Source of the DNA: a bacterium
GTDB taxonomy: Bacteria > Electryoneota > Electryoneia > Electryoneales > Electryoneaceae
Direction of reading: 5' to 3'
Assembly: GCA_963675295.2 (NCBI GenBank)
Contig: CAXXKJ010000002.1
Coordinates: 1,600,001-1,664,000, forward strand
Length of the DNA: 64,000 bases
The translations under genes and the position numbers were made by a program. The notes under the pieces are model-generated. The model did no database searches. It was not told where the DNA came from and saw only the letters and a list, made by a program, of their open reading frames with translations. Positions 565-53,831 of the stretch are shown here, piece after piece (the stretch's first letter is position 1; each line of letters opens with the position of its first letter).

Positions 565-2136
565 ATGACACGCCCGTTCCCGACACGGACACGCCGTTCC
601 TTCACACCATCACACCGTTTCCTGACACTCGCCCTGATCATCCTTCCCCTGCTGATCGCGTCCGCCGCCACTGCCCAACCCCCCGACACTTTGTGGACAA
701 AGACTTGGGATTACGGATCAGATTACGAGTACATGGAAGCTGTCCGCGCCTTACCGGATGGTGGATACATCGCCACTGGCTATACTGATTACTATGAAAC
801 AAACATCCAGTACTGGACAGCCCGGCTCGACCAGGACGGAAACGAAATCTGGCTGCATATTGAAGGATCAGCGTCTTCGGATGGTGCTCATTACATCGAA
901 CCGACCAGCGATGGTGGATTCATCCAATGCGGCGAGGTATGGGGAAACGGCTTTGACCCTTACATCCGCAAACTCGACGCTGATGGCAATGAAGAGTGGC
1001 GGACAGTTATTCCTGGCTGGATCATCGGCGAACTGTTTTACTGCGTTCGCGAAGTTCAAGCGGGGGGGTACATCGCAGTTGGCTATTCCGCGAATGGGAC
1101 AGCGTTCCGTTTCGACGAGGACGGGAATTTCATGTGGCAATGGACGGACGAGGATTCGCTCTACAAACCGCAGTGGATTGAACCCACTGCCGATGGCGGT
1201 TTTGTGACGTGCTCAGATCACTGGAATGAAGATCTCCAAACTCGTGTACCCATCTTCTACAAGCTTAACGCGGATGGAGATGTCGTCTGGACGAATGATG
1301 AGTTGCTTCCAGGACAACCAGTTGAAGGACAGGCGTTCTGTGTCCGTGAGGATGAGGATGGGACGCTGTATACATCTGGATCATTCAGATCTGACTCGAC
1401 CTATTATGATTTTAATGTCACGAAGCGCACATCAGAAGGTGAAGTCATCTGGTCGCTGGTTGTTCCAAATCCTGACGGACCAAGTAATGGTTTTGATTGT
1501 TGCCTTGAACATGTCATTCTCCCAGATGGGAACATAATCGCCGGTGGCTATGGGCAAGAGATGGACTACAGTTTTAACGTATGGCTGATGAAGGTGTCGT
1601 CCGAAGGCGAAATGCTTTGGCTTGATGCGATACCAAGAGGTGATATTTCCTCCCTCGATTTTGGTCAAGATGGATCGGTAATCGCGGCATGGTATGATCG
1701 GGTAAACGGCGGCTGGAATTCCGAGAATCTGGCGTTGATGAAATGGGAATCAGAAGTGAAGGTGCTGCTCGATCCGTATGTGCAGATTGTTCCACCACAA
1801 GGCCGGAGGACGCACTACCGCGCATATGTCGGAAACATCCTCCTCAATCCGACGCCGCTCGACGTCTGGGCAACAGTCACCACACCCGCCGGAAACACGT
1901 TCCCGTTGCAGCAGATCGCGGTGACGTTGCAGCCGGGTGGGACGTTTTACCGTCCAAGAGTCCCGCTCGATATCCCCGCCGCCGCGCCGCCGGGTGAGTA
2001 CACGTTCGAGCTGCATGTCGGCGTCGCGCCGCCAACCGTTCCGCCCGGCGGACCCAACGGCAGCCGTCACATGGGGCTGGGGTCGTTCACGTTTACGAAA
2101 ACCGTTAGTCGGTTGTCGGTAATCGGTTGCCGGTGA
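565..2136 (+). CDS. Secreted beta-propeller-like repeat protein with the shared C-terminal beta-rich domain but no YPNPFN sorting domain
   Basis: Signal peptide (LTLALIILPLLIASAATA-QPPD); repeated 'DGG.I..G...KLD.DG..W' blades; C-terminal VPPQG..Y...DVWATVTTPAG...PAAAPPGEYTFELHVG domain. ATG 565 preferred over TTG 532. Confidence 0.75.
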   Translation: MTRPFPTRTRRSFTPSHRFLTLALIILPLLIASAATAQPPDTLWTKTWDYGSDYEYMEAVRALPDGGYIATGYTDYYETNIQYWTARLDQDGNEIWLHIEGSASSDGAHYIEPTSDGGFIQCGEVWGNGFDPYIRKLDADGNEEWRTVIPGWIIGELFYCVREVQAGGYIAVGYSANGTAFRFDEDGNFMWQWTDEDSLYKPQWIEPTADGGFVTCSDHWNEDLQTRVPIFYKLNADGDVVWTNDELLPGQPVEGQAFCVREDEDGTLYTSGSFRSDSTYYDFNVTKRTSEGEVIWSLVVPNPDGPSNGFDCCLEHVILPDGNIIAGGYGQEMDYSFNVWLMKVSSEGEMLWLDAIPRGDISSLDFGQDGSVIAAWYDRVNGGWNSENLALMKWESEVKVLLDPYVQIVPPQGRRTHYRAYVGNILLNPTPLDVWATVTTPAGNTFPLQQIAVTLQPGGTFYRPRVPLDIPAAAPPGEYTFELHVGVAPPTVPPGGPNGSRHMGLGSFTFTKTVSRLSVIGCR

Positions 2137-2240
2137 TCGGTAACTGATAACTGACAACTGACAACTGACAACTGACCACTGACCACTGACCACTGACCAC
2201 TGACCACAGCCCATAGCCCGCCGTCCGCAGTCCGTAGCCT
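2108..2240. repeat. Heptamer tandem arrays (GTCGGTT/GATCGGT-type, then AACTGAC/CACTGAC-type) overlapping the stop codon of the upstream gene
   Basis: Direct reading: gtcggtt gtcggta atcggtt gccggt gatcggt aactgat aactgac x4 cactgac x4 cacagcc catagcc. Confidence 0.9.
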
Positions 2241-2316
2241 ACTGAGCCTCATCCACTCGCGTGAGCGGATTCCGTTGGCTACCTTCCAGCGGAGACGAAC
2301 TCAACCGGACCGGACC

Positions 2317-12410: not shown

Positions 12411-12411
12411 T

Positions 12412-14067: not shown

Positions 14068-14077
14068 AATGGTATCC

Positions 14078-14452: not shown

Positions 14453-14458
14453 TTTACA

Positions 14459-14487: not shown

Positions 14488-14527
14488 GAAAGTAAAGAGA
14501 CTTTTCTGTCAGGTTGCTATCAAACAC

Positions 14528-14909: not shown

Positions 14910-16751
14910 TCAGCGCACGAGCATCACTTTCTGCATCTGTTCGAACTGACCGGGCACAGTTGCGCGGACAAAATACAGCCCACTGGCGAGGTTGTTCGCA
15001 TTAAATGACAGCTCATGCGAGCCCGCGTTGAACTGACTGTTTGCGAGGGTCGCGACCTGCTGGCCGTTGGTGTTGTAGACGGTCACGGTCAGCGGGGCCG
15101 TTTCCGGCAGGCTGACGTTCAGCGTGGTCATCGCGTTGAACGGGTTCGGGTACGCCGCGCTCAGCATGAACTCGCCTGGCAGGGTGCTGCCGGTATCAAC
15201 GGTGGTTTCATCATCGATGGCGGCGAGAATCTTGTCTTCGCCGTCGCTGGCCCACTGGTTCGTCGCACTGTTCGCGGCTTGCGCGGCGACGATGGTGAAC
15301 GGAAAGGAATCCGTACCCAGCGCCATGTTCTGGTTCGGGCCGGCGTTCAGCACCCAGTCGTATTCTCCCGGCGGGGCCATCGCAGGTATCTGCTGCATGA
15401 TGTTGGTAACCGTGATCTGCATGTCCGGCGTGAAGAAGAAATTGACGTAGAACATCGGGCCATAGGTATTGCCATTGGGCAGGATGACCTCGGTCCAGAT
15501 GGTGCCAAAGGTCGGCAGCACGATGTTGTAGTCAATCATCAGGTCGTAGAAGAAGATCCCGCCCTGCGAGACGATGGTCGGATCGAGTTGCGGGGTGATG
15601 TCAACGACAATCGGCGGTTCCGGACGGCTGATCCAGGCCTTGACCATGTCCGAGTTCCGGGCCGCGCCGACGATATCGATGTTGCCGTCGTTGTCGAAAT
15701 CGGCGGCATGTACCGCGCGCGCGTCCGAGAAGGATGCGTCGATGTTCCATTCGATCCACAGCGACCCATCGCCGAGCTCGTTTTCCCACCACGTGACGTC
15801 GTCGCCGTAGCGTGCCGCGCCGATGATGTCGAGGTCGTTGTCGCCGTCCACGTCGGTCGCAAACACGCTGATCGCTTCGTCGAAGAAATCGTTGATCGTG
15901 CGCTGTGTCCAGCTAGTACCGGCGCCGTCGTTGTTCTCCCACCAGGTGATATCGTCGGCGATATAGTCGGCGGCGCTGGCGATGTCGATGTCGCCGTCAC
16001 CGTCCATATCGCCGGGGGAGAGACTGGACGCGTAGTCGAAGTCGAGGTTGACGTTGTGCGTGGTCCAGTTGAGGCCGTCGCCGTCGACGTTTTCCAGCCA
16101 GATGATGCCTCCCGCAGAGGCGACGATGTCGATATCGCCGTCATTGTCCATGTCGAATGCTTCCGCGACACGGGCGCCGTTGATGCTGAGCACCGGGGTT
16201 TCGGTGAACAGAGAACCGTCCCCGTTGACATTTTCCCACCACGTGATCTGGTCGGCGCTGGATGCGACGCCGAGGATATCCATGTCGCCGTCCCCGTCCA
16301 TGTCGGCCGCGCGAACACAGTTGGCGCCGTCAAAGGTGTCGGTCAGGGTGTTCAGCGTCCAGGTGAGGCCGTCCCCGTTGACATTTTCCCACCACGTGAT
16401 GTTGTCGTAGGAATAGGATGACGCGAGGGCGTCCATATCGCCGTCGCCGTCGAGGTCGGCGGCGAACACACACTGGCCACTGGGGAAGGTGCCGTCAATG
16501 GTTTGCAGCGCCCAGGTGGCGCCGTCACCGTTCACGTTTTCGAACCAGCCGACCACGCCGGAGAAGGAGGCGACGCTGAGCACATCGTTGTCGCCGTCAC
16601 CGTCAAAGTCAGCCGCGTAGACGTCCTGCGCGCCGTCGAAGGTGTTGCTGATTCCACGCTGGATCCAGTTGATGTCGGCATACGCGGCTTGCGTACCGAT
16701 GGCCAGGATTGCGATCAGACTCAGCCAGACAAAGGTTTTGGAACTGCGCAT
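14910..16751 (-). CDS. Secreted FG-GAP/VCBS repeat beta-propeller protein with shared beta-rich domain and T9SS-like CTD
   Basis: Signal peptide; 7 repeats of AADxDGDGDxD...WWENxxGDG; SQGGIFFY...YGP...APPGEY domain; AYPNPFN...LASGLYFV...KVMLVR. Confidence 0.9.
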   Translation of the reverse strand: MRSSKTFVWLSLIAILAIGTQAAYADINWIQRGISNTFDGAQDVYAADFDGDGDNDVLSVASFSGVVGWFENVNGDGATWALQTIDGTFPSGQCVFAADLDGDGDMDALASSYSYDNITWWENVNGDGLTWTLNTLTDTFDGANCVRAADMDGDGDMDILGVASSADQITWWENVNGDGSLFTETPVLSINGARVAEAFDMDNDGDIDIVASAGGIIWLENVDGDGLNWTTHNVNLDFDYASSLSPGDMDGDGDIDIASAADYIADDITWWENNDGAGTSWTQRTINDFFDEAISVFATDVDGDNDLDIIGAARYGDDVTWWENELGDGSLWIEWNIDASFSDARAVHAADFDNDGNIDIVGAARNSDMVKAWISRPEPPIVVDITPQLDPTIVSQGGIFFYDLMIDYNIVLPTFGTIWTEVILPNGNTYGPMFYVNFFFTPDMQITVTNIMQQIPAMAPPGEYDWVLNAGPNQNMALGTDSFPFTIVAAQAANSATNQWASDGEDKILAAIDDETTVDTGSTLPGEFMLSAAYPNPFNAMTTLNVSLPETAPLTVTVYNTNGQQVATLANSQFNAGSHELSFNANNLASGLYFVRATVPGQFEQMQKVMLVR

Positions 16752-26573: not shown

Positions 26574-27872
26574 TCACTTCATCAGCATCATCTTCTGCAT
26601 GTCGGACGCGACGCCGGGCACATCCAGCCGCACAAAGTACACGCCGCTGGACAGCGCGGACCCATCGAACGTGAACGTGTGGTGTCCGGCGTACTGATGT
26701 CCCTGCGCGAGGGTCGCGACCTGCTGGCCGAGGGTGTTGAGCACGGTAAGGTTCAGTTCGGCGGCCTCCGGCAGTGTGACGCCAACCGTGGTCACCGGGT
26801 TGAACGGGTTCGGGTAGACAGCTTCGATGCGATACTCGGACGGTACGGTTGCGAGAGTTTCCCCGTCAGTGTCAGCCGTCCAGTTCCAGCCGTTGCTGCT
26901 CCAGTTGTCCACGGTTGCACTGCCGGTGGGCGCGGCTAGCTTCTCGAAGGTGAATTCGTCCGAGTCGATCACGGTGTCCGGCCAGGTGCCGACGCACGCC
27001 CGGAAGGTGTAGGTCCCGGCGAAGATCATCCACGGAACGTTTTGCGCCAGGTTCAACGACACCGAGTGTCCGGCGGGGAAGACGCGGTTGGGGTACATGT
27101 CGACCGGGCCGTAGGTGTTGCCGTTCGGGCCGACCGCTTCGGTCCACGCGTCAAACGTGACCGGGTCGGCGCTGGTGTTTTCGACGACGGCGTTGTACGC
27201 GAATGAACCGCCGCTGGCCGGGATCTGGATCGGGGTGTTGTACGGGCTCAACGTGATGGTCGGAGCCTGCACGCCCTCGAGCACATCCACCCGGAACGCG
27301 CTGGCGGTTTCAGCGCTTGGAACCAGCCAGTCTTCCGCTTCACGGCGCATGGTGTGGAGGCAAGGCAGGCCTGGATCAATGTTCATGCACCAGCCTGTCC
27401 ACGTAGTGTCGGATGCAACCGCCCACAGCCAATAATGGTCGCCGGCGTTCAGCACAGTGTTGCCGTTGCCTTCCAGGTGAATCGGCGGATTCCACTGCGA
27501 CCACGACTCGAAGTCGGTGAGTATCCATTCCTCCAGGACATCATCCTCAACCGGCGGAATCAGGTTTGGATTGCGGGCGATCTTAAATGTGACCGTGTCC
27601 GGATAAGCTGAGATCGGAACATACCAGAACGCTACCCAGATGTCAGACAGTGTTCCGGAAACGTCGCACTGGAACGACATCGCCTGTTCCACGCCGTACT
27701 GCTGGATGACATCTTCGCCGGCGACGGTCCAGCCGAGGCCCCAGTTGTAGTCCCAGCCGTCATGGTCCGGGCCGAAGTTGTTGTAGACCGTGGTCTGGCC
27801 GAACGCAAGCCCGGCGACCAGGATGACAGACAGTGCGGTCAGAATGAGTGTGCGGAGCGTTGCCTTCAACAC
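26574..27872 (-). CDS. Secreted protein with choice-of-anchor-R-like N-terminal domain, shared beta-rich domain and T9SS-like CTD
   Basis: GGGGGA RBS and GTG start; signal peptide; TVYNNFGP...QAMSF...LNAGDHYWL; IPASGGSFAY...YGP...GTYTF; VYPNPFN...KMMLMK. Confidence 0.8.
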   Translation of the reverse strand: MLKATLRTLILTALSVILVAGLAFGQTTVYNNFGPDHDGWDYNWGLGWTVAGEDVIQQYGVEQAMSFQCDVSGTLSDIWVAFWYVPISAYPDTVTFKIARNPNLIPPVEDDVLEEWILTDFESWSQWNPPIHLEGNGNTVLNAGDHYWLWAVASDTTWTGWCMNIDPGLPCLHTMRREAEDWLVPSAETASAFRVDVLEGVQAPTITLSPYNTPIQIPASGGSFAYNAVVENTSADPVTFDAWTEAVGPNGNTYGPVDMYPNRVFPAGHSVSLNLAQNVPWMIFAGTYTFRACVGTWPDTVIDSDEFTFEKLAAPTGSATVDNWSSNGWNWTADTDGETLATVPSEYRIEAVYPNPFNPVTTVGVTLPEAAELNLTVLNTLGQQVATLAQGHQYAGHHTFTFDGSALSSGVYFVRLDVPGVASDMQKMMLMK

Positions 27873-38917: not shown

Positions 38918-40822
38918 CTACCTGACGAGCATCACCTTCCGAACCTGGTCCATCTGTCCGGGAACGGTTGCGCGGACGAAATACAGCCCGCTGGCGAGAT
39001 GAGACGCGTTGAACACGAGCTCGTGAATCCCTGCCGAAACCTGTCCCTGGTTGATCAAGGCGACCTGTTGTCCCATGACGTTGTACACCGCAACGGTCAG
39101 CTCGGCGGCATCGGGTACTTGAACGGTGAGGGTCGCCATCGCGTTGAACGGGTTCGGCGTCACGGGCATCAGGCGGAAGTCCGCCGGGAAAGTCGCATCC
39201 GCTGGTTCCGAACCGTGGAAGTCGCCGGTAAGAACCCAGCCCGACTGCGGCATCTCGTTCAGATACGGCGGCGCTTCGTCTTCCTCGATGGTGAAGGTGA
39301 GGTGGGCGATCACGTCTGCGTGGAACGGGTAGTCGCCGAGCAGAACGGAGTATTCGTAACGCCCCGGCGGGATCGGGCTGGGAACAGTCTGCTGCACATC
39401 CAGTTCGGTCACACCTTCCGCGAACGTCACGTTCTGATAGCCATCAATGGTGGCGGAGTAACGGTTCTCCAGATCCCTGACCTGCACCCAGACATCGTAT
39501 TGTGTCGCGGGGCCGTGATTCAGCAACTCGAAAACGAACGGGAAGCTGCCACCCGTGGTGGAGAAGGTCAGATACCCCGGCGGGAGTAACGTCAGCTCCT
39601 TCGTTCCAGCCACATCACCGCCCAGCGAAGCGATGAACTGCTTGTGCTTGTACCCGTACGCATCGCTTCCCCGAGGTGACAGATCGCCCGAGGTCAGAAC
39701 GATACCATCCGCAGTCGCGACACTCACGCCATCTTCGAGGTCGTCCATCGCGTTGTTGGTTCCAACCAACCGTTGCCAGAGGATGTTGAGGTTTGTGTCC
39801 AGCATCATCACATGCAATTTCCTGCACAGGAAATCATCCTGCTCCCACGAGCCGGTGACCAGGATGTTGCTGTTGGGAAGCTGCTTCACCTCATGGAATT
39901 CATAGTCGTAGTCTTCGGCATCCCCCAGCGGAATCTCGATGACTTGTTGCACGCCCGGGCTGTCGGTGCTCAACACGGCAACTTCGACTCCGGGTGGAAT
40001 GCTGCCCATGAAATTGCGGGAGGTGAACCACAGCCAGCGACCGTCCGGAGTGACAATGCTACATTCCTCGGAAACAACATCATCCCAGGTCGGCCCGGTG
40101 TCGTAGATGAAGTGTCCCGACCACAACTGATTACCATTGGCGTCATACCGGGCGGTGAAGAGGCGTTCCACAGTCGGATACCAGCTCTTGTGGAAGCTGA
40201 CGACGTAGAAGCCCCCATCCGGTGCTTGCACAACGGACAGTGGATACGTGCGGGTGTAGCCCTGACCCGTCCGATGGCTCCAGATCGGGACGTACTCACC
40301 GTCCACAGGATGCGGATCTACTTTTGCGATCACCAGGTCCTCGTCACCGGCCAGCGTTTCCGCACTGCTGACTAGTACCACGAGGTATCCGTCAACGGTC
40401 ACCAGCATGTCGCCTGCCCGGTCATCCTGTCCCAGGTAGAGCGGACATACATCATCCATCCAGATGAACTCCGACATGTCGACCAGACCAATCATGGCAT
40501 GCGGGCGAGGCGCCTCTGAGTTTGACCAGTCATAGCCCAGGACCCACGCGCCATAATCTGGTCCTGCAACCAAGTCTGTCCATGTGATACGATCTGCATT
40601 AAGAGCCGTATAGTGCATATCATTCTTCCAATCCTCCACCGACAGGGTTCGGATCACACTGTGGTCTGTCAACGTGAGGATACTTCCATCCGGCACGATT
40701 TCCATGTCGATCGGACGATCATAGCCGAAGATGCCCGTTTCCAGGATCTGCGGTTGTGCGTTTGCGGAAAGTGGGAACAGCAGAAGCGAAAGAAGCAGAA
40801 TAGACAGCAGCGAGCGTAACAT
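38918..40822 (-). CDS. Secreted beta-propeller-like protein with shared beta-rich domain and T9SS-like CTD
   Basis: Signal peptide (SANA-Q); TARYDANGNQLW-type blades; TTGGSFPF...DVWVQV...PPGRYEY; VTPNPFN...KVMLVR. Confidence 0.85.
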   Translation of the reverse strand: MLRSLLSILLLSLLLFPLSANAQPQILETGIFGYDRPIDMEIVPDGSILTLTDHSVIRTLSVEDWKNDMHYTALNADRITWTDLVAGPDYGAWVLGYDWSNSEAPRPHAMIGLVDMSEFIWMDDVCPLYLGQDDRAGDMLVTVDGYLVVLVSSAETLAGDEDLVIAKVDPHPVDGEYVPIWSHRTGQGYTRTYPLSVVQAPDGGFYVVSFHKSWYPTVERLFTARYDANGNQLWSGHFIYDTGPTWDDVVSEECSIVTPDGRWLWFTSRNFMGSIPPGVEVAVLSTDSPGVQQVIEIPLGDAEDYDYEFHEVKQLPNSNILVTGSWEQDDFLCRKLHVMMLDTNLNILWQRLVGTNNAMDDLEDGVSVATADGIVLTSGDLSPRGSDAYGYKHKQFIASLGGDVAGTKELTLLPPGYLTFSTTGGSFPFVFELLNHGPATQYDVWVQVRDLENRYSATIDGYQNVTFAEGVTELDVQQTVPSPIPPGRYEYSVLLGDYPFHADVIAHLTFTIEEDEAPPYLNEMPQSGWVLTGDFHGSEPADATFPADFRLMPVTPNPFNAMATLTVQVPDAAELTVAVYNVMGQQVALINQGQVSAGIHELVFNASHLASGLYFVRATVPGQMDQVRKVMLVR

Positions 40823-41118: not shown

Positions 41119-43401
41119 TCAACGCACCAGCATCACCTTCTGCACCTGATCCAGCTGGCCGGGGACGGTCGCGCGGACGAAATACAGCCCGCTGGCAAGG
41201 TTTGTGGCGTCGAACGTGAAGCGGTGGGTTCCGGCGGCATAGGAACCCTGTGCCAGATCGGCGACACGCTGGCCGGTCACGTTGTAGACGGTTACGCTCA
41301 GGTCGGCTGTTTCCGGCAGGCTGACACGAACCGTCGTCGCCGGATTGAACGGGTTCGGATACGCATTCAGCAGACGGAACTCGGACGGGACCACGTTCGT
41401 CACCTCGCCCGATGCATCCGCGGACACACCAAACTGGCCACCGCTGGTCCATTCACTCGGATCGAACTCGAACTCGCCGTCCGTCGCCAGCCCCAGTTTG
41501 AGGAAGCTGAAGTCATCGGACAACTGCGGACCCTGGTTGTAGCCGACAACTCCGTGGAAATAGTACGTTCCGCCCGGTGCGCTGCCTGGAATGTCCTGTG
41601 TCAGCCCCATCACGCTGTACGTCATGAACGGCGTGACATTGAAGATCACATTCGTCAACGGACCGTACGTGTTGCCATCCGGGGCATCCACGTAGGTGCG
41701 GTAGCGAACGTTCGGCGCACTCATCCCCGTGTTGTTGATCAGCTCGGCGTTGTATTCAATCGTGCCACCTTCCGGCTGAATCACCAGCTGCAACGGCGTC
41801 AGACCGAAGAAGAAGTCCTGCTGCGCGCCGCCGCCCTGAACGTAGATCGAGACGTTGTCGATGCCCCAGTAGAGGCCGTCGTCGTCGCCGTAGTCGTCGT
41901 AGAGGAACCCGATCCGCGCGGTTGAACCGCCGGTCATGTACTCCGTGAAGTCCCAGACCGCATGACCCGTATCCGGCATCGTATCGTGATACAGATAGAC
42001 CGGATGCCATTCGCCGTCGTTCAACTGGTACTGGATGTGGCCGTACTGTGCGGCGAGATCCGCGAACAGGTGGTCAAACTCGATAATCACCAGGCCCGCT
42101 TCGTTGACATCAAATTCCGGCGAAACCAGGCGCTCCTCATGCTCTGTACCACCACCACCAATGTCGCTGACCAGCATGTACGGCGTGTCGAAGAGGGCTT
42201 CTTCGCTGCCATCATCCAGGTGCCAGGTGTGATCCTGATCCTGCGTTTCAACACTCCAGTCCGCGGGCAGACCGTTGTCGAAATCGGCCGCAATCACGAC
42301 ATTCGTCGGATTCTTGTACAGCACACCCGCCGAATCTGACATCGACTCGCCTTCGTCGTACTGCGCGGTGACCAGGTAGTCATGCAACCCATAGTCGTTC
42401 AACGATTCACTGAAGGTTACCTCGGACGGCTGGCCAACCAACTGGCCATCGCGGTATACGTTGTAGTGGAGGAATTCGTCCAGCTCACGCGTGCCGCTGT
42501 TCGGATCGAAGAATCCAGCTGCTACCAGCGGGATCTCCGCCTCTGTCCGGTGAACCTGATCCGCGGACAGCTCCGGCGCACGCATCAGATCGTTTTCATG
42601 GATCAACGACTGCGGCAGGATCATTTGCTGTGGAATAGATGCTGACTCTGCGCCCGCTCCAGCGTACTCATCAATGCCGACAAATTCCCATTGAATCGTG
42701 CCAAAATGACCAAAGCCGGACCCATCCTCGGCACCACCGGTTCCGAAGTAGCCGGTCGGGGCGTTCGGTTCGTACGCGTGCTGCACTTCGTGGCCATTGA
42801 TGTAGAACACGATGCTGTCGTCCTCATAAGCGACGCTCAGCGTGTTGAAGCGATCAAGGCCGTTATTGATCACCGGCGTGTAGCGCCAGGAGTTCAGGTA
42901 GTACGCGACCCCGTCAATCAGCTTCAGGACGTAATACTGTCCCTCGTAATCACCCGTCTCATAGCCAGGCGTCATCGAAAAAATGTAGCCGTTACTGGTG
43001 TCCTGGGGATAATGCCCTTCGGTGAACAGGAACATCGACATCGCATAATGGGGATTGCCGCTGATCTTCGCGAAATTCAGCTCGAAGATGCCATTGTTGT
43101 ACATCTGGTTGCCGTAATACGCGGAAGTCCAGGATCCCTCGCTGCTGCCCCAGGCATACCAGGATGACGTCAACCGCCCGTCTTCCACAGTCCAGTCACC
43201 CGGGTAGTCGAAAACCCACCCCTGCGCCGAACCATCTTCAAAATCGTCGAAATAATCCGCCGCGAACGGCGCCATCCAGTCCACCGTCGCCGTGCCGTTC
43301 ATGTCCACCGACGCACGCGCATTGACCGGCGGCGGGGTTTGCGCCATGACCGCAGTGGCCAGCAGTACAATCATCAGTGCCAGAATAAAGATCTTTCTCA
43401 T
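41119..43401 (-). CDS. Secreted multidomain protein (lectin/DUF1080-like, FN3-like, adhesin-like beta-sandwich, shared domain, T9SS-like CTD)
   Basis: Signal peptide; FDDFEDG...FYING; YNVYRDG...YLVTAQYDEGES; DFDNGLPADW...WGIDNVSI; QPEGGTIEY...YGP...APGGTY; AYPNPFNP...KVMLVR. Confidence 0.85.
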   Translation of the reverse strand: MRKIFILALMIVLLATAVMAQTPPPVNARASVDMNGTATVDWMAPFAADYFDDFEDGSAQGWVFDYPGDWTVEDGRLTSSWYAWGSSEGSWTSAYYGNQMYNNGIFELNFAKISGNPHYAMSMFLFTEGHYPQDTSNGYIFSMTPGYETGDYEGQYYVLKLIDGVAYYLNSWRYTPVINNGLDRFNTLSVAYEDDSIVFYINGHEVQHAYEPNAPTGYFGTGGAEDGSGFGHFGTIQWEFVGIDEYAGAGAESASIPQQMILPQSLIHENDLMRAPELSADQVHRTEAEIPLVAAGFFDPNSGTRELDEFLHYNVYRDGQLVGQPSEVTFSESLNDYGLHDYLVTAQYDEGESMSDSAGVLYKNPTNVVIAADFDNGLPADWSVETQDQDHTWHLDDGSEEALFDTPYMLVSDIGGGGTEHEERLVSPEFDVNEAGLVIIEFDHLFADLAAQYGHIQYQLNDGEWHPVYLYHDTMPDTGHAVWDFTEYMTGGSTARIGFLYDDYGDDDGLYWGIDNVSIYVQGGGAQQDFFFGLTPLQLVIQPEGGTIEYNAELINNTGMSAPNVRYRTYVDAPDGNTYGPLTNVIFNVTPFMTYSVMGLTQDIPGSAPGGTYYFHGVVGYNQGPQLSDDFSFLKLGLATDGEFEFDPSEWTSGGQFGVSADASGEVTNVVPSEFRLLNAYPNPFNPATTVRVSLPETADLSVTVYNVTGQRVADLAQGSYAAGTHRFTFDATNLASGLYFVRATVPGQLDQVQKVMLVR

Positions 43402-45668: not shown

Positions 45669-46022
45669 GGGATTTCCCCCGCTTTCGTTAACCTGAGTGA
45701 ACCGTCTCTTCCCAAATCTCTGTTTCATCGCCGCACATTTGTGCGAACTTGAGACGCCAATATGTTAGGCGTACCTCACTTTCGCAAGAACAATGCCGGT
45801 CACCCGAGAGGGCGGAGGTAGTTCGCGGCACGATTCACAACATATTGCGCAACTCGTTACCAAAGTGGCAGTTAGCCATTGTCGAGAAAAACAGCTAGTC
45901 AGCAGAATCCAATGCCAAGAGAGACCCGGCATCTCACTTTCATTGTCCGATATGAGCCACCCACCAGTGAACATTTGATCCGAGCTCTTGGATCTACACG
46001 CTGATCATCATTACGTTCAGCC

Positions 46023-47393: not shown

Positions 47394-47587
47394 CTGGAAA
47401 ATCAGTCAAAGTGCTGAAATGTAGAGCAAATCGCATCGAGTTGACGTACATTGCGATTCAGTACTTTTCACCTGTCGGGCAGCTTGGGTCATGTTCAGGG
47501 GGAGAGAACCATGAGAAAGCTCGCCATCCTGTTTTTTGCCATCCTCATCGGCACCACTGCCACTGCGCAGGATAGCCTTAATGTCAG
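47391..47587 (+). repeat. Leader + signal-peptide module, copy 1 (copy 2 at 52002-52195)
   Basis: TAGCTGGAA...AAGTGCTGAAATGT...TTCAGTACTTT...GGGCAGCTTGGGTCA...GGGGAGAGAACCATGAGAAAGCTCGCCAT...AATGTCAG shared by both copies. Confidence 0.9.
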
Positions 47588-50054
47588 TAAGGTGAGTTCG
47601 CTCCTCAACGGCTGGCGTGATGCGCAGTCCGTTGATGCCGTTGGTTCTTATGCCTATGTGACAACTACATATTCAGGACTAAAGATTGTTGACGTCAGTA
47701 ATCCATCTGCGCCGGTTGCCGTGGGTAGCTTTTTTTCAGGAGAATATGGATACGAAGTAGAAGTAACTGGAGAGTATGCTTACTTCGCCAATTCAGATGA
47801 TGGAGTTCACATTCTTGATGTATCTGATCCAGCAAACCCTGTTCAAGTCGGAATTTGCAGTACATCTGATCAAGCTCGAGGGGTAACAGTTACTGGAGAT
47901 TATGCATACATCGCCGATCATTATGCAGGTCTGAGAATATTTGACATCAGTGACCCTGCATCTCCTTTTGAAGTTGGCTTTTGTTCTACACCTGATCATG
48001 CATCTAAAGTTGCTGTCTCAGGTAGTTATGCTATCGTCGCAGACTGGATGGGTGGCTTGAAAATTATTGACGTTAGCGATCCATCCATACCCGTGTGTAT
48101 CAGCACTTTTCAGACACCAAGCGACGCGCTGGATGTTTTTATATCAAATGATTTGGCTTATGTTGCTTCTCAATCGACAGGACTACATATTATTGATATT
48201 AGCGATCCATATAATCCGTATCAAGTCGGTTTTTATGATACTTCAGGTAATGTTAAATCCCTAGATTTTGTTAATGAATTTGTTTACATAACGAATGGCA
48301 ATGGCATCAGTGTTATTAATGTAAGTAATCCGGCCTTACCTTTTGAAGTTGGATTCTGCGAATCTCCAGATTTTGCACAAGGTGTCTCTGTCCAAGGTGA
48401 TTATGCATATGTTGCAGATTGGGAAAAAGGTATGAGAGTAGTCGATGTAGCTAACCCGTACAACCCAATTGAAATTTCTTTTATTGACCCTGGCATGATT
48501 TATGATGTTGTATATAGTGATAATTATGCCTTCCTGGCTAATGGCGATACAGGTCTATGTATTATTGATTTATCGGATGCATTACATCCATTTGTAGTTT
48601 CTACTTTTCACACTTCGGTTGAAACCAAAAAAATCACTGTAGCTAATGAATATGTCTATATTGCAGATTCAGGGCTGCGAGTTATTGACATCAGTAATAT
48701 TGAAATACCAACGGAAGTTGGATTCTTGGAAACTGATCATACTCCTCGCGATCTTGCGTTCGAAAACAACTACATTTACGCGTCAGCTGGTAATTATATA
48801 TTGATTATTGATGTATCTAATCCTAACCAACCAACACTAGTAGCAGATTACTATTTACAATGGTTATCGGCAAACGCAGTATTTGCTACAGGTGATTATA
48901 TTTATATAGTTGAGAATTGGGCAGATTATTATTCCTATATGCTTGTACTTGACGTTTCAAATCCATTAATACCTCAAGAAGTTTGTTCTTATTACTTGTC
49001 TGAAGAAATTCCTAAAGATATATTTGTAAGTGGTAATTATGCGTATATAGCTGTTGAATCTACTGGAATGCGGGTATTTGATATTACTAATCCTGCCTTA
49101 CCTTTTGAAGTTGATTGGATTGATACTGATAATGCAGTAAGTGTTTATATATCTGGTAATTATGCCTTTTTAGCTGCTGGCGGTTCTGGACTGCGCGTAA
49201 TCGATATCAGCGATCCATATAATCTGGATGAAGTTGGTTACTATGATACAGAAGGGTATTCATATGGTGTAACCGTTCATAATGGATATGCTGGTATTGC
49301 AGATTACTACTCCTTTTCCATTTTCGATTGCACGGAAGCTACACCCCCGTCGCTGATCGACGTCATCCTCATACCACCTCAACAGCTGGTCATACCCCGG
49401 GGTGGTAGTTTTCAGTACGACGCACTTCTGATGAGTAACCTGCCTGCGCCGACACGCGTCGACATCTGGACCTTTGTCGTTCAACCCAATGGTAATCCAT
49501 ATGGTCCCATTTTGCGGATCCTTGGCTTCCCGTTCACCCCAAACACGATCATCGAGGCGAATGCGATCACTCAGTATGTCCCAATTGGTGCGCCGCTTGG
49601 AATGTATACCTATCACCTGAATGCTGGACGATTCCCGAGGCGAATAGCGGAAGGCGACCAATTCAGTTTTGAGGTTGTAGAAACCTTGAACGCTGAGGGT
49701 GACCAGCAATCTACATGGTCAGCCTGGGGTTATGAGCAAGCATTTGGTAGGAATACAGGCATCCGTCTGAATGGGTTGGAACTGCCAGATGAGTTCGATC
49801 TGCTTGAGGCCTATCCCAATCCGTTCAACCCATCGACGAATCTCACCGTTGAACTTCCGGCACAGACTGATCTGACCGTCATTGTGTACAACATAAATGG
49901 TCAACAGGTTGCCGAACTGGTCAACGGCAGCTACCCTGCCGGTTCACACACCTTGACTTTCGACGGATCCGACCAGGCAAGCGGCCTATACTTCGTCCGA
50001 GCTACAGCTCCCGGACACTTCGACCAGGTACAGAAGGTGGCATTGGTGAAGTGA
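47511..50054 (+). CDS. Secreted LVIVD-repeat protein with shared beta-rich domain and T9SS-like CTD
   Basis: MRKLAIL signal peptide; about 13-14 repeats of YAYVA...GLxIIDxSxPxxP; IPRGGSFQY...YGP...APLGMY; AYPNPFNP...KVALVK. Confidence 0.92.
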   Translation: MRKLAILFFAILIGTTATAQDSLNVSKVSSLLNGWRDAQSVDAVGSYAYVTTTYSGLKIVDVSNPSAPVAVGSFFSGEYGYEVEVTGEYAYFANSDDGVHILDVSDPANPVQVGICSTSDQARGVTVTGDYAYIADHYAGLRIFDISDPASPFEVGFCSTPDHASKVAVSGSYAIVADWMGGLKIIDVSDPSIPVCISTFQTPSDALDVFISNDLAYVASQSTGLHIIDISDPYNPYQVGFYDTSGNVKSLDFVNEFVYITNGNGISVINVSNPALPFEVGFCESPDFAQGVSVQGDYAYVADWEKGMRVVDVANPYNPIEISFIDPGMIYDVVYSDNYAFLANGDTGLCIIDLSDALHPFVVSTFHTSVETKKITVANEYVYIADSGLRVIDISNIEIPTEVGFLETDHTPRDLAFENNYIYASAGNYILIIDVSNPNQPTLVADYYLQWLSANAVFATGDYIYIVENWADYYSYMLVLDVSNPLIPQEVCSYYLSEEIPKDIFVSGNYAYIAVESTGMRVFDITNPALPFEVDWIDTDNAVSVYISGNYAFLAAGGSGLRVIDISDPYNLDEVGYYDTEGYSYGVTVHNGYAGIADYYSFSIFDCTEATPPSLIDVILIPPQQLVIPRGGSFQYDALLMSNLPAPTRVDIWTFVVQPNGNPYGPILRILGFPFTPNTIIEANAITQYVPIGAPLGMYTYHLNAGRFPRRIAEGDQFSFEVVETLNAEGDQQSTWSAWGYEQAFGRNTGIRLNGLELPDEFDLLEAYPNPFNPSTNLTVELPAQTDLTVIVYNINGQQVAELVNGSYPAGSHTLTFDGSDQASGLYFVRATAPGHFDQVQKVALVK

Positions 50055-50094
50055 ATCTTACTGATGTAAAAAGCGCATCATGAAGGGGGTATTC

Positions 50095-51948
50095 ATGCGC
50101 TGTTTCCTGGCATTACTGATCGTGTCGTTGCTGCCGTCGCTGGCGATACCTCAAGAGTGGACCGAACACAATATTATCACGAATTCGTCGTGGGTGACGT
50201 CGGTACGAGCGGCTGACATTGACAGCGATGGTGATATCGACGTGCTTAGTGCCTATGAATATGGGTTACTCCGTTGGTGGGAAAACCTAGATGGCACGGG
50301 TATTGTCTGGTCTGCGCACACGGTTGACAGCTTCAATTGGATCCATTCAGTCCACGCTGCGGACCTGGACGGCGACGGCGACATGGACGTGCTTGCCACG
50401 GTGGGGCATTCCGATGATGCAGATGAACTTTTGCTCTTAATAAACGAGAACGGACAGGGTACAGATTGGTCAATTCAGCATCTGGGCTACTGGGGTATGG
50501 CCCATACTTTACAAGCCACAGACATGGATGGCGATGGCGATCTGGACGTGCTTAGCTCATGGGAACTGGATGTGTGGGATGGAGTTGGTGAGGTGTATTG
50601 GTGGGAAAATGTGGATGGAACGGGCACGCTTTGGGATACTCATGATGTGGATGTAGAATTGTTCGGTGCGGAAGATGTTTACGCAGCCGATGTGGATGGC
50701 GACGGAGACCTTGATGTGCTGGGCGTTACAATGTATGCCAATACGATTTCATGGTGGGAAAACATCGATGGATCAGCTACAAGCTGGATAAGACACACGG
50801 TGAACGACGACTTTCCCGGCGCCATATCTATTCATGCTGCAGATATCGATGGCGATGGAGATGCAGACTTTGTTGCAGCTGCCTATGATGGTGATGAAAT
50901 AGCTTGGGGGGAAAACGTGAATGGCACCGGCATGGTCTGGTCGGAGCATGTGGTGGATGGGGAATTTGATGGCGCCATATCTGTCCTCGCCGCAGACATC
51001 GACGGCGACGGAGATATTGACCTTGCTGGTGCAGCTTATGATGTTGATGAAGTCACGTGGTGGGAAAACAATGGTGGCCCAGGAACAGTCTGGATTGAAC
51101 ATATCCTCAGCACGGAATTTGATAGCCCGTATGAAGTGCATATTGCTGACATCGAGGGTGACGGTGACATGGACGTATTGAGTGCGGCGGGATATGAAGA
51201 TAGTGAAGTCGTTTGGTGGGAACAGCCCGGAGGACAGGACCCTCCGCTTATCGAAGTTTCCCTTTTTGCTGGTCAACCGCTTCAAATACCGAGGGGCGGG
51301 AGTTTCGAGTACGGCATCTTCCTGAGCAACAATTTACCATCCCTCTTCTATGTCGATTTCTGGACCTATGTCAATCTCCCTGACGGCACACCATTCGGAC
51401 CGATTTGGCGGATCAACAATGTTCCCATGGCGCCGAACACAACTATCCGGGTTAATGCAGTTGGTCAATCTATCCCGAACGAAGCTCCCCTCGGCGAATA
51501 CACCTTCCACATGCAGGCTGGCGCATTCCCCAACGTTGTTGCTGGAGAGGACGAATTCCCCTTTGAAGTGGTTGCAGCTACTGGCACAAACGGCTCACCG
51601 TCCACCGATTGGTCTGCGTGGGGACTGGATCAACTCCAGTCACAGAGCATCGCACAGAACTCATATGTGGAAGCTTGGCCGAACACCTTCTCTCTTTCCG
51701 AAAGCTACCCAAATCCATTCAACGCCGCCACAACGCTGACCGTCAATCTGCCGGAAAACGCTGAGCTGAGCGTCACCGTCTACAACATCTCCGGCCAGCA
51801 GGTTGCGGAACTTGCAAACGGTTCGTATACCGCCGGGACACACCGCTTCACGTTCGACGCGTCCGGCCTCGCCAGCGGACTTTACTTTGTCAAAGCGACC
51901 GTCCCTGGACAGATGGACCAGGTTCAGAAAGTGATGCTGGTCAGATAG
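50095..51948 (+). CDS. Secreted FG-GAP/VCBS repeat protein with shared beta-rich domain and T9SS-like CTD
   Basis: Signal peptide; 7 AADxDGDGDxD...WWEN repeats; IPRGGSFEY...APLGEY; SYPNPFN...KVMLVR. Alternative start at 50080. Confidence 0.92.
   Translation: MRCFLALLIVSLLPSLAIPQEWTEHNIITNSSWVTSVRAADIDSDGDIDVLSAYEYGLLRWWENLDGTGIVWSAHTVDSFNWIHSVHAADLDGDGDMDVLATVGHSDDADELLLLINENGQGTDWSIQHLGYWGMAHTLQATDMDGDGDLDVLSSWELDVWDGVGEVYWWENVDGTGTLWDTHDVDVELFGAEDVYAADVDGDGDLDVLGVTMYANTISWWENIDGSATSWIRHTVNDDFPGAISIHAADIDGDGDADFVAAAYDGDEIAWGENVNGTGMVWSEHVVDGEFDGAISVLAADIDGDGDIDLAGAAYDVDEVTWWENNGGPGTVWIEHILSTEFDSPYEVHIADIEGDGDMDVLSAAGYEDSEVVWWEQPGGQDPPLIEVSLFAGQPLQIPRGGSFEYGIFLSNNLPSLFYVDFWTYVNLPDGTPFGPIWRINNVPMAPNTTIRVNAVGQSIPNEAPLGEYTFHMQAGAFPNVVAGEDEFPFEVVAATGTNGSPSTDWSAWGLDQLQSQSIAQNSYVEAWPNTFSLSESYPNPFNAATTLTVNLPENAELSVTVYNISGQQVAELANGSYTAGTHRFTFDASGLASGLYFVKATVPGQMDQVQKVMLVR
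51517..51878 (+). repeat. About 360-bp 3' coding module, copy 1 (copy 2 at 53400-53761)
   Basis: Near-identical sequence with about 14 mismatches by eye, encoding AGAFPNVVAGEDEF...DASGLASG. Confidence 0.95.
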
Positions 51949-52001
51949 AGATACCAGTCAGCTGGGATATGGATTTGGAGATGTCAAGGGGAGGTTTCGA
52001 C

Positions 52002-52195
52002 TAGCTGGAACACAGTCGAAGTGCTGAAATGTTGAGCAAATCGCCTCTTGTTGATGTACATTGCGTTTCAGTACTTTCACCAGCCGGGCAGCTTGGGTCA
52101 GTATTTGGGGAGAGAACCATGAGAAAGCTCGCCATTCTGCTTATTGCTGTCGTCATTAGCATCAGTGCGTCCGCGCAGGACAGCCTGAATGTCAG
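52002..52195 (+). repeat. Leader + signal-peptide module, copy 2
   Basis: Aligns with 47391-47587. Confidence 0.9.
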
Positions 52196-53831
52196 CATTG
52201 TCGGATCGCTATACGATGATCACACGATCTATGATGTTGCGCTGGTTGATCACTACGCATACCTGGCAGATGGTGAACTGGGACTTCGAGTAGTAGATGT
52301 TTCAGATCCTTCTGAACCAGTAGAAGTTTTAGCTTACGAAACACAGGGAGATCTCCGCAATATTAAGATTTTGGACGGTTACGCCTACGCTGCTATTTCA
52401 AATTATGGTATGATAATATTGGATGTTTCAAGTCCAATTAATCCTGTAGTCGTAGGTTTTTACCCATTTCCTTTTGTTGTCAATGATATAGCCGTATCTG
52501 ATGGATATGTATTTATCGATCGAGGCAGTAGAGTAATAATTGTCGATGTTACAGATCTGTCAAACCCTGTCGCTGTTGCCATTTTTGACCCGGGAGATAC
52601 GTATGCCTATGTCGCGGGTATAGATGTTGCCGATAATTATCTCTATGTGACTGGAGGTGGTAATGAATGGCCTCATGCATATTATTATTTATGGATTTTG
52701 GATGTATCAGACCCATCCTCGCCAGATGAAGTAGCCTCTTACCAAACGCAACATGGTATGGGACCCCTAAGAGTAGTGGATGATTTTGTCTATGCAACAT
52801 ATGAGTGGGAAGACCAGATTATTGGTGGAATCTATATTTTTAATGTAAGCAATCCAAACGAACCTTCTATCATTGGGAGCTTTGAAGTCCCGTTTAGGCC
52901 ATATAATATCGAAGTGGAGGGTGATTATGTTTATTTGGTGCGTTACTCTGGTGAATTGAATATTTATCATGTTCTTTTTCTGTCTGCAATAACTGAAGTA
53001 GGGTACTACGATACGGCAGGCAGAGCGTACAGTGTCGCTGTTAACGGTAATTATGCATACGTAGCAGACTATTATCACTTTTCCATTTTTGATTGTAGCG
53101 ATGCAACAGGTGGAGGGATCAATCCGCAGTATATCAACATCAGCTTATCCACCCCGAATCCGCTGATCGTTCCACGTGGTGGTAGTTTCCAATACGAAAT
53201 CATGGTGACCAGTAATCTCCCATCGCCTCGACGTGTCGATTTCTGGACCTACGTCACCCTGCCCAACGACTGGACATATGGCCCACTGCAACGGATCAAC
53301 AACGTCCCGATGACACCCACGACCGTCATTGGACCAGTCAACCTTGGACTTGATATTCCGCAGAATGCGTTCCTCGGGGAGTATACGTTTCACTTACAAG
53401 CTGGCGCATTCCCCAACGTTGTTGCTGGAGAGGACGAGTTCCCCTTTGAAGTCGTCGCAGCTACTGGCACAAACGGCTCACCGTCCACGGATTGGTCTGC
53501 ATGGGGACTGGATCAACTCCAGTCACAGAGCATCGCACAGAACTCATATGTGGAAGCTTGGCCGAACACCTTCTCTCTTTCCGAGAGCTACCCAAATCCA
53601 TTCAACGCCGCCACAACCCTGACCGTGAACCTGCCGGAAACCTCCGAGCTCAGCGTCACCGTCTACAACATCTCCGGCCAGCAGGTTGCGGAACTTGCAA
53701 ACAGTTCGTATACCGCCGGGACACACCGCTTCACGTTCGACGCGTCCGGCCTCGCCAGCGGGTTGTACCTCGTCCGCGCGACTGTGCCGGGCGAGCTGAA
53801 CGCGGTGCAGAAGCTGGTGCTGACGAAGTAA
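52119..53831 (+). CDS. Secreted LVIVD-repeat protein with shared beta-rich domain and T9SS-like CTD
   Basis: MRKLAIL signal peptide; about 7 LVIVD-type repeats; VPRGGSFQY...YGP...LGEY; SYPNPFN...KLVLTK. Confidence 0.92.
   Translation: MRKLAILLIAVVISISASAQDSLNVSIVGSLYDDHTIYDVALVDHYAYLADGELGLRVVDVSDPSEPVEVLAYETQGDLRNIKILDGYAYAAISNYGMIILDVSSPINPVVVGFYPFPFVVNDIAVSDGYVFIDRGSRVIIVDVTDLSNPVAVAIFDPGDTYAYVAGIDVADNYLYVTGGGNEWPHAYYYLWILDVSDPSSPDEVASYQTQHGMGPLRVVDDFVYATYEWEDQIIGGIYIFNVSNPNEPSIIGSFEVPFRPYNIEVEGDYVYLVRYSGELNIYHVLFLSAITEVGYYDTAGRAYSVAVNGNYAYVADYYHFSIFDCSDATGGGINPQYINISLSTPNPLIVPRGGSFQYEIMVTSNLPSPRRVDFWTYVTLPNDWTYGPLQRINNVPMTPTTVIGPVNLGLDIPQNAFLGEYTFHLQAGAFPNVVAGEDEFPFEVVAATGTNGSPSTDWSAWGLDQLQSQSIAQNSYVEAWPNTFSLSESYPNPFNAATTLTVNLPETSELSVTVYNISGQQVAELANSSYTAGTHRFTFDASGLASGLYLVRATVPGELNAVQKLVLTK
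53400..53761 (+). repeat. About 360-bp 3' coding module, copy 2
   Basis: Aligns with 51517-51878 at an offset of 1883 bp. Confidence 0.95.

Follow-up and report, generated by a model that had tools for sequence, protein, structure and literature searches.

The window, i.e., the whole 64-kb stretch of DNA analysed, encodes eight secreted proteins having one domain in common (Table 1), as proposed in an earlier note on this DNA. The HMM built from the eight copies recovers them with E values of about 1e-30 to 1e-46 (4e-30 to 8e-46 among the genome frames), ruling out chance or compositional similarity of the segments, and within the window both this HMM and a second one built from 302 copies match these eight proteins only. 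The shared segment is a genuine Ig-like β-sandwich domain of ~107-112 residues; its eight copies align over ~111 columns with a mean column identity of 47%, and the positions G16, P76, G82, Y84, G91 and F103 are invariant. An N-terminal Sec signal peptide was read directly in all eight translations.

Seven of the proteins carry a type A CTD, the tag of the type IX secretion system (T9SS), ~40 aa after the domain, with scores of 33.3-43.7 bits for PF18962 and 32.7-45.6 bits for TIGR04183 (cut-offs of 27 and 23 bits, respectively), whereas none is found in the protein at 565. Two further proteins of the window, 23572-26151 and 44841-45728, have a CTD but not the domain, with the 302-copy HMM as well. 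The N-terminal folds had been described as different and unrelated in all eight proteins, which is overstated, because two pairs have passenger folds in common: FG-GAP is found twice (14910 and 50095), as is LVIVD (47511 and 52119). The other passengers are one resembling 3-keto-disaccharide hydrolases (41119), one sub-threshold PQQ/delta-60 propeller (565) and two without a Pfam hit.

Table 1. Genes and features of the 64-kb window.
Feature	Position	Strand	Remarks
ORF	532-2136	+	protein at 565; Sec signal; sub-threshold PQQ/delta-60 propeller passenger; no CTD
ORF	14910-16799	-	FG-GAP passenger + domain + CTD
ORF	26574-27959	-	passenger without Pfam hit + domain + CTD
ORF	38918-40822	-	domain + CTD; most divergent domain copy of the window
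ORF	41119-43431	-	3-keto-disaccharide-hydrolase-like passenger + domain + CTD
ORF	47451-50054	+	protein at 47511; LVIVD passenger + domain + CTD
ORF	50080-51948	+	protein at 50095; FG-GAP passenger + domain + CTD
ORF	52029-53831	+	protein at 52119; LVIVD passenger + domain + CTD
RbmA-like Ig domain	1756..2106	+	extreme C-terminus of 532-2136; HMM E 6e-34; translation checked
RbmA-like Ig domain	15276..15608	-	in 14910-16799 (FG-GAP); E 4.4e-42
RbmA-like Ig domain	26925..27257	-	in 26574-27959; E 4.0e-42
RbmA-like Ig domain	39278..39598	-	in 38918-40822; E 4.1e-30, 7.4e-13 with the 302-copy HMM
RbmA-like Ig domain	41482..41814	-	in 41119-43431; E 1.6e-35
RbmA-like Ig domain	49356..49694	+	in 47451-50054; E 2.0e-44; copy modelled (AF2 pLDDT 95.5, pTM 0.85)
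RbmA-like Ig domain	51250..51588	+	in 50080-51948; E 2.0e-45
RbmA-like Ig domain	53133..53471	+	in 52029-53831; E 2.0e-46
Linker motif WASDG	15240..15254	-	in 14910-16799
Linker motif WSSNG	26889..26903	-	in 26574-27959
Linker motif WVLTG	39224..39238	-	in 38918-40822
Linker motif WTSGG	41437..41451	-	in 41119-43431
Linker motif WSAWG	49716..49730	+	in 47451-50054
Linker motif WSAWG	51610..51624	+	in 50080-51948
Linker motif WSAWG	53493..53507	+	in 52029-53831
T9SS type A CTD	14913..15158	-	PF18962 43.4 bits, TIGR04183 43.1 bits
T9SS type A CTD	26577..26822	-	PF18962 35.6 bits
T9SS type A CTD	38921..39166	-	PF18962 33.3 bits
T9SS type A CTD	41122..41367	-	PF18962 38.2 bits
T9SS type A CTD	49806..50051	+	PF18962 35.1 bits
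T9SS type A CTD	51700..51945	+	PF18962 42.8 bits
T9SS type A CTD	53583..53828	+	PF18962 43.7 bits
Recombination (gene-conversion) tract	51520..51879	+	pairs with 53403-53762; genes with different passengers (FG-GAP, LVIVD)

Fold, kinship and linker

The Ig-like nature suspected earlier is borne out by the AF2 model, predicted as an all-β sandwich of eight strands. In VIA-align, the best match is RbmA, the biofilm protein of Vibrio cholerae (4be5; Z 11.8, rmsd 2.9 Å, 103 aligned residues), but Ig-like domains of no known relation to it score almost the same (Z of 11.8 for AlkC, 11.4 for a domain of GH2 and 11.0 for Spo0M), and the fold by itself is uninformative on function. Foldseek gives a TM of 0.68 between the domain and RbmA, while its top match for the domain is the CARDB domain of PF1109 (3idu; E 2.3e-4, TM 0.58); when the two-domain module is used, the top seven matches are RbmA chains.

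Regarding the sequence, a profile of 30 copies matches RbmA among the PDB sequences (4kkp, E 1.2e-6, 31.6 bits; 4be5, E 1.6e-6), and its alignment covers both RbmA FnIII domains via the GG, W, P-x-G, P and G-x-Y-T positions, which, judged by this profile, makes the domain a divergent branch of RbmA-like_FnIII (PF22021). Searching with PF22021 itself, two of the eight window copies match at E<=10 (best 0.0099), none of them near the cut-off of 27 bits; in the whole genome, 12 places are found at E<=0.01, one over the cut-off (27.9 bits), and the seven of them that were compared with the listed domain sites all coincide. There are also metagenomic proteins with 2-4 tandem copies of the domain, and one with four copies attains a PF22021 sum of 44.9 bits against the same cut-off. 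As the scores mostly stay below that value, the domain is classed as a remote sister branch and not as a member of the Pfam family.

The earlier note could not name the domain, and it is indeed not recognized by Pfam and NCBIfam, as the domain region of the full window proteins has no match at E<=0.01; in the ESM Atlas, only unnamed clusters (0.92-0.93) came up, and the recognition value was low. However, its remote homology to RbmA-like FnIII gives it a relative. This comes near to the match with a described domain that the earlier note had named as refuting its idea, but the match is remote, and the function of RbmA is not simply transferable.

The motif first described agrees with the consensus of the 302 genomic copies, P-x-GG-x-f-x-Y ... 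W-T-x-v-x-L-P-N-G-x-x-y-g-P ... Q-x-V-P-x-x-A-P-x-G-x-Y ... G ... D-s-F-x-F-t-K. Conservation is at least 50% in 28 of 106 columns, 20 of which hold G, P, A, aromatic or aliphatic residues; the polar conserved columns are N25, T37, N43, Q70, D98 and K104 only. This pattern fits a structural role no less than one in binding. In the 30-copy alignment, no run of 7-10 conserved columns is present. With a median net charge of -5, the domain is acidic, which does not suggest the binding of anionic polymers.

The linker has ~40 aa; its semi-conserved element, (D/E)-W-(S/T)-x-x-G-(W/F/Y), precedes a stretch modelled at low confidence and probably flexible. In the model of the module, the WSAWG of 47451-50054 forms a short strand and a helical turn (mean pLDDT of 79 for the block 121-130), residues 133-141 have a pLDDT <50, and the pTM is 0.56. 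The W-x3-G pattern proposed for the linkers is present in all seven of the window but in only 102 of 222 throughout the genome, where any W is found in 181/222; among domain-less CTD proteins, it occurs in 13/185 within the 45 aa upstream of the CTD.

Census and exchange of the cassette

The eight-copy HMM was searched against 39,028 stop-to-stop frames of at least 60 aa from the 4.81-Mb genome, resulting in 302 domain carriers (305 with an iterated HMM). In a second, independent profile search of the genome, 150 of 323 first-look candidates were scored and all 150 match. The expected enrichment directly before CTDs was found, as 231 of the 302 carriers also have a CTD (233/305 with the iterated HMM), with a median gap of 39 aa and a gap of 30-49 aa in 179/231 frames. 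The genome contains 421 CTD frames, 231-233 with the domain and 188-190 without it, in addition to PorU (NF033707, 708.7 bits for a cut-off of 420) and SprA (TIGR04189, 830.1 bits for a cut-off of 200). By a heuristic, a signal-peptide-like hydrophobic region is present in 217 of the 233 frames with domain and CTD.

The carriers without a CTD (71-72 frames) end with the domain, and 67/72 have a signal-peptide-like hydrophobic region. They were considered as frameshifted CTD genes, which was rejected, as just 1/71 has a downstream CTD in another frame; some of the tails resemble truncation remnants. The congeneric homologue of 532-2136 has 566 aa, is 58% identical over 538 aa and ends 4 aa past the domain. 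These paralogues would employ the same domain without T9SS export.

The passengers of the domain carriers fall into 76 clusters, and for 142 of 297 domain copies the nearest neighbour is joined to a passenger from a different cluster, with identities reaching 95.6%. In the window, the recombination tract is identical in 345/360 nt (~96%), each of its 12 successive 30-nt windows having 26-30 identical positions, compared to 9-22 of 30 in the flanking windows, and it extends from the last domain strands through the linker to most of the CTD. Domain, linker and CTD are shown to be a cassette swapped among passengers by recombination.

Spread in the phylum

The restriction to a lineage holds, since the domain occurs in 20 of the 79 genomes of the phylum, with at least 46 matches per genome in 17, 1-2 in three and none in 59. 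CTDs are present in 79/79, as is PorU at E<=1e-30 (75/79 over the cut-off); PorU was therefore rejected as a discriminator of domain-rich and domain-less genomes. In two domain-less genomes, the CTD proteins sampled (20/20) were without any such domain. Among 181 CTD-only frames of the genome, the printed examples from the four largest clusters have FG-GAP, propeller and β-helix passengers abutting the CTD, and no second common pre-CTD domain was found, the clusters having at most nine members and tracking passenger families. A pattern search with one domain copy gave 108 pattern matches and no relative. In the look-up of the domain cluster, one of ten representatives is labelled 'candidate division Zixibacteria bacterium'.

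As far as gene content tells, the domain is dispensable for having a CTD and for export, because there are CTD-only paralogues and 59/79 domain-less genomes with CTDs and PorU. The same data bear on the idea that in these lineages the secretion signal includes the domain, which would be required for the T9SS to recognize the protein or for PorU and PorV to process it. The domain does adjoin the CTD, and the W motif is tied to their combination (102/222 linkers compared to 13/185 CTD-only controls); however, the CTD frames of the same genome and the phylum genomes that do without the domain leave this idea with a very small probability.

Proposed role and known systems

Our preferred reading, to which we give a probability of roughly 0.6, is a cassette of RbmA-like domain, linker and CTD, where the domain is kept as a stalk and most likely has a non-covalent role in retention or binding. 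Export by Sec would come first, then the CTD would be recognized by the T9SS and PorU would cleave within the flexible part of the linker. The domain would be left at the C-terminus of the mature protein as its base, acting as a rigid stalk and, most likely, as a non-covalent retention/binding module whose ligand, at the surface or in the matrix, is common to the carriers. That the mature protein retains the domain once the CTD is removed we infer from the low-confidence stretch of the modelled linker and from gingipain cargo, where, according to the available text of PMC4804311, the PorU sortase removes the CTD and the mature enzyme keeps its Ig domain. The domain would then probably hold the mature protein at the surface. 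A glycan is a plausible ligand by analogy to RbmA, which binds the Vibrio polysaccharide (VPS) and alternates between a monomeric and a dimeric state, as described in the available text of PMC5605196.

It is also conceivable, though somewhat unlikely, that the domain only keeps the passenger apart from the CTD, as an inert spacer or an insulator of folding that gives the sortase a uniform context and binds nothing. The IgSF of RgpB is a precedent, as it 'may act as a spacer or insulator' in the words of its authors (available text of PMC4804311), and the highly regular distance to the CTD and the conserved positions, being largely structural residues, agree with it. However, a spacer is not required, since the very families of passengers that precede the domain are also found with only a CTD, in this genome as well as in the domain-less ones sampled. 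Moreover, the CTD-less carriers retain the domain, one such architecture being kept in the congeneric genome, and the tandem metagenomic copies do not suit a spacer either.

The earlier note suggested docking on a common surface scaffold or S-layer as a lineage-specific display system; in this model, the domains would make protein-protein contacts with such a scaffold, with an S-layer or with each other and build a display lattice, which we consider improbable. According to the available text of PMC5605196, the RbmA FnIII domains build dimers and higher-order structures, the CTD-less secreted carriers are possible partners, and the near all-or-none spread among genomes agrees with it. However, no scaffold candidate came up in passing, the conserved columns are mainly of core type, and the paralogous copies are highly divergent, with a median identity to the nearest neighbour of 48.6%, thus a single shared protein interface is less likely. 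The homodimer prediction of the domain scored 0.23 for a mark of 0.42, without controls, and gives no verdict either way.

Extending the retention reading, the domain may be a non-covalent tag for retention at the surface or in the matrix that a few lineages of the phylum acquired and extended to over half of their T9SS secretome as a sortase-independent second display tier. Paralogues lacking a CTD would leave the cell via Sec, perhaps with one of the four secretin systems, and would be kept at the cell surface either by the common ligand or by pairing up with copies anchored through a CTD; recombination of the cassette would switch any passenger between anchored, tag-only and free forms. This extension is doubtful.

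In a genome of 4.8 Mb, ~300 genes, among them those for the majority of its ~420 T9SS substrates, use one family that the curated libraries do not recognize. The carriers are now annotated merely as "T9SS type A sorting domain-containing protein", and a family profile would better annotate at least 3,843 public protein clusters. The role of a pre-CTD Ig domain has been in question since the gingipain IgSF was seen as a possible spacer, and the near all-or-none spread (17/3/59 of 79 genomes, with CTDs and PorU throughout) offers a natural comparison, allowing a direct test of what such a domain contributes beyond secretion. In addition, the link to RbmA leads, by analogy, to the testable hypothesis that, in an uncultured phylum of the FCB group, secreted proteins are retained via glycans. 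Literature searches on RbmA with type IX secretion and on the pre-CTD architecture found nothing on this domain family, and the terms T9SS and type IX are absent from the main text of the papers examined on the candidate phylum.

The display system is not new in kind, since its arrangement is the IgSF-CTD of RgpB, Kgp and PPAD. The order of passenger, Ig-like β-sandwich, flexible linker and type A CTD is the same, with PorU and SprA present here, and RgpB is described in the available text of PMC4804311 as an IgSF-CTD tandem with a flexible linker. Meanwhile, the domain appears to belong to another sequence family than the gingipain IgSF, as no gingipain chain is among the seven PDB matches (E<=10) of the 30-copy profile; the listed fold matches contain none as well, an absence compatible with distant kinship. 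The linker has ~40 aa with a W motif, compared to the 9 aa given for RgpB in that text. Unlike the gingipains, ~230 cargo proteins per genome rely here on one family, which also exists in CTD-less versions, and the host is not a Bacteroidota, unlike Porphyromonas gingivalis.

CARDB (PF07705) and the MG/NEW3-type E-set domains have a similar β-sandwich and are accessory domains of secreted prokaryotic proteins, but their structural scores are below those of RbmA; CARDB matches none of the eight window copies at E<=10, and NPCBM_assoc and MG2 match one copy each (E 0.022 and 0.06). RbmA of Vibrio cholerae is the best or joint-best structural match and is likewise secreted to the cell exterior; however, it is a free two-domain matrix protein, as described in the available text of PMC5605196, whereas here the domain is a single-copy appendage of hundreds of multidomain T9SS cargo proteins.

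Occurrence of the domain in the window and the genome

The shared segment is a genuine domain with a very large number of copies in this genome. All eight ORFs named in the earlier note are present in the window, each starting with a Sec-type signal peptide, as read from the translations, and seven of them ending in a T9SS type A C-terminal sorting domain (CTD) over curated cut-offs. No Pfam or NCBIfam family is found at E<=0.01 between the passenger (the N-terminal part) and the CTD of these carriers; the eight segments themselves align over ~111 columns, with a mean column identity of 47%. An HMM of the eight copies, searched against all 39,028 stop-to-stop frames of at least 60 aa from the 4.81-Mb two-contig genome, recovers 302 frames at E<=1e-3 (window copies from 4e-30 to 8e-46), 231 with and 71 without a CTD, as judged with a second HMM from nine window CTDs that matches 421 frames in the same genome. 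Rebuilding the domain HMM from all copies gained only three frames (305 in total, 233 with a CTD), indicating that the family is saturated in this genome. In an independent profile search, 150 of 323 first-look candidates were scored and all 150 match.

Within the window, the HMM returns exactly the carriers that had been listed from the sequence and leaves out the two CTD proteins from which the domain had been said to be absent, and the consensus of the 302 genomic copies reproduces the motif proposed for it. The description of the carriers as eight unrelated proteins with different N-terminal folds is overstated: there are about six passenger types, because FG-GAP and LVIVD repeats each occur in two carriers. 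The G+C content falls to 0.42 at ~12000-16000, against 0.55-0.62 around it, and this low value, together with an AAA-type ATPase-like ORF, suggests that the region may be foreign DNA.

Features of the window and selected carriers elsewhere in the same genome (G000; C1 and C2, its contigs); passengers according to Pfam/NCBIfam
Position	Class	Passenger or other feature
532-2136	carrier, no CTD	sub-threshold PQQ/delta-60 propeller
14910-16799	carrier, CTD	FG-GAP repeats
26574-27959	carrier, CTD	no Pfam/NCBIfam family
38918-40822	carrier, CTD	no Pfam/NCBIfam family
41119-43431	carrier, CTD	3-keto-disaccharide-hydrolase-like domain
47451-50054	carrier, CTD	LVIVD repeats / choice-of-anchor B
50080-51948	carrier, CTD	FG-GAP repeats
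52029-53831	carrier, CTD	LVIVD repeats / choice-of-anchor B
23572-26151	CTD, no domain	
44841-45728 (-)	small CTD protein, no domain	choice-of-anchor V (NF041895, 108.6 bits); weak Reeler match; single C-x-x-C-H motif near mature N-terminus
12412-14067 (-)	ORF, 551 aa	AAA-type ATPase look, defence/mobile-element kind (by eye from translation)
51520-51879 and 53403-53762	shared tract	345/360 nt identical; flanking 30-nt windows 9-22/30
G000:C2:3241199-3243442 (+)	carrier, no CTD	15-aa tail ending like the last CTD strand
G000:C1:168980-170569; G000:C2:1753001-1754560, 1057064-1058755, 619695-621353, 887248-888816, 844083-845642; others	carriers, no CTD	subfamily with conserved C-terminal extension

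Fold, kinship with RbmA and the linker

AlphaFold2, given a 30-copy alignment, predicts an eight-strand beta-sandwich (pLDDT 95.5, pTM 0.85), for which the best Foldseek matches are the CARDB domain 3idu (E 2.3e-4), RhoGDI, AlkC, dextranase and RbmA (TM 0.68), a Vibrio cholerae biofilm protein with two FnIII domains. Among 48,161 chains compared by VIA-align, RbmA 4be5 reaches a Z of 11.8 (rmsd 2.9 A over 103 residues), equalled by AlkC (11.8) and followed by many other Ig-like domains. As RbmA is tied with AlkC and closely followed, the fold alone is generic, and the naming of the domain rests on sequence evidence instead. RbmA is found by the 30-copy profile with E 1.2e-6, the alignment running through both FnIII domains and the signature positions of the family, and the four tandem copies of one metagenomic protein give PF22021 (RbmA-like_FnIII) a summed 44.9 bits, for a cut-off of 27. 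On the genome, PF22021 finds 12 places at E<=0.01, including one that exceeds its cut-off, and the seven compared with the listed domain sites all coincide with them; two of the eight window copies match weakly (best E 0.0099). We conclude that the domain is a divergent sister branch of the RbmA-like FnIII family, not a Pfam member by threshold, RbmA being its only identifiable relative.

Among 1.84 billion representative proteins, all scanned with HMMER, 3,843 match at E<=1e-3, of which 1,974 reach E<=1e-10. Where public homologues of the module bear a name at all, it is in most cases only 'T9SS type A sorting domain-containing protein'; their passengers are highly diverse and comprise beta-helix, Kelch, C10 and subtilase peptidases, amylase, 5'-nucleotidase, lamin tail and arylsulfotransferase. 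The metagenomic representatives P0121, P0128 and P0190 have three or four tandem domain copies before the CTD, and in P0190 a CARDB match (82.2 bits) adjoins the best-scoring copy.

The enrichment of the domain directly before CTDs is borne out by the 231 carriers with both, where a median of 39 aa separates the domain end from the CTD start (30-49 aa in 179 gaps). The W-x3-G motif reported for the linkers is found in all seven of the window; genome-wide it occurs in 102/222, compared to 13/185 CTD proteins without the domain (45 aa before the CTD), and a W is present in 181/222 linkers, usually 9-13 residues after the domain. W-x3-G is therefore tied to the domain-plus-CTD combination and not to the CTD alone. 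When domain, linker and CTD were modelled together from 23 sequences, two confident sandwiches were obtained (mean pLDDT 85.3), whose orientation to each other is not fixed (pTM 0.56). Directly after the W, residues 122-129 fold into a short strand plus a helical turn (block 121-130, mean pLDDT 79), and residues 133-141 fall below a pLDDT of 50. The top seven Foldseek matches of this two-domain model are RbmA chains, at a high rmsd that is expected of flexible tandems.

Secretion, carriers without a CTD and cassette exchange

The genome encodes PorU (708.7 bits), SprA (830.1 bits) and four secretins. The 181 CTD-only frames examined have no other common pre-CTD domain; among the examples listed, FG-GAP, propeller and beta-helix passengers abut the CTD directly. 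In a set of 79 genomes of the phylum, type A CTDs are present in all (61-698 first-look candidates each), as are PorU matches at E<=1e-30 (over the cut-off in 75). The domain is found in 20: 17 have at least 46 matches (54-325 first-look candidates) and three have one or two, while in the other 59 the 7-30 first-look candidates all failed scoring. Within the family of the window's genome, it is abundant in two genera (5/5 genomes, this one included), single-copy in a third (2/2) and not found in nine genomes of the other eight. In two domain-less genomes, the 20 best-scoring CTD proteins among those listed, a non-random sample, have ~15-20 aa between their passengers (LVIVD among them) and the CTD, and with the domain HMM they score no better than E 0.03. 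These comparisons argue that the domain is not required for secretion. Regarding PorU itself, all nine domain-rich genomes of family f5 (G019, G024, G029, G044-G049), have three or four PorU-like matches, those listed being a full-length copy and partial matches in ~1200- and ~1700-aa frames, compared to a single match in the window's genus.

The carriers without a CTD look functional, judging from their sequences. A signal-peptide-like hydrophobic region is present in 67/72 and a lipobox-like motif in three, and 45/71 end no more than 10 residues beyond the last domain strand. A congeneric homologue of the 532-2136 protein (566 aa, 58% identity over 538 aa) likewise ends four residues after the domain. 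Their origin from frameshifted CTD genes was rejected, as a CTD lies in another frame just downstream in only 1/71. Some of the longer tails resemble truncation remnants, and the carrier with the 15-aa tail seems to have lost its linker and most of its CTD by an internal deletion. In one subfamily, a conserved extension of 45-55 aa, common to paralogues, follows the domain in place of the CTD and may serve as a further element for sorting or interaction.

By their N-terminal regions, 298 carriers group into 76 clusters (sizes 100, 46, 18, 10, 10 and below, 49 being singletons). For 155/297 copies, the most closely related domain belongs to the same passenger cluster, against ~43 expected by chance; for 142/297 it belongs to a different one, and the highest cross-cluster identity (95.6%) links an FG-GAP gene to an LVIVD gene at a distance of 1.3 Mb. 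The 360-nt tract shared in the window runs from the domain end through the linker into the CTD of adjacent genes with FG-GAP and LVIVD passengers. Its flanks are far less similar, and the tract is a recent gene conversion. The two LVIVD proteins are also almost identical in the signal peptide and the first residues of the mature chain, so that their genes are more alike at both ends than in the middle.

Putative role and comparison with known systems

By analogy with RgpB, PorU would cleave the linker where it is flexible, and the domain would then form the base of the mature protein at its C-terminus; in RgpB, the CTD is preceded by an IgSF domain that the mature enzyme keeps (PMC4804311). 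A stalk with an additional retaining or binding role is favoured over a pure spacer, since the domain is dispensable for secretion, the domain persists without a CTD, and RbmA binds an exopolysaccharide (PMC5605196). The margin of the retaining or binding stalk is modest, because conservation falls mostly on structural positions, the domain has an acidic character (median net charge -5) and the ligand is only putative. Overall, the observation of the earlier note stands, and its interpretation is supported only in part.

Literature searches found no paper on this RbmA-like pre-CTD domain family. The superfamily of the domain is a known one. The family itself is new, being unrecognised by curated libraries, as are its scale, its nearly all-or-none distribution, the CTD-less versions and the cassette recombination. 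The passenger-Ig-CTD architecture is already known from gingipains, where it is the same as here.
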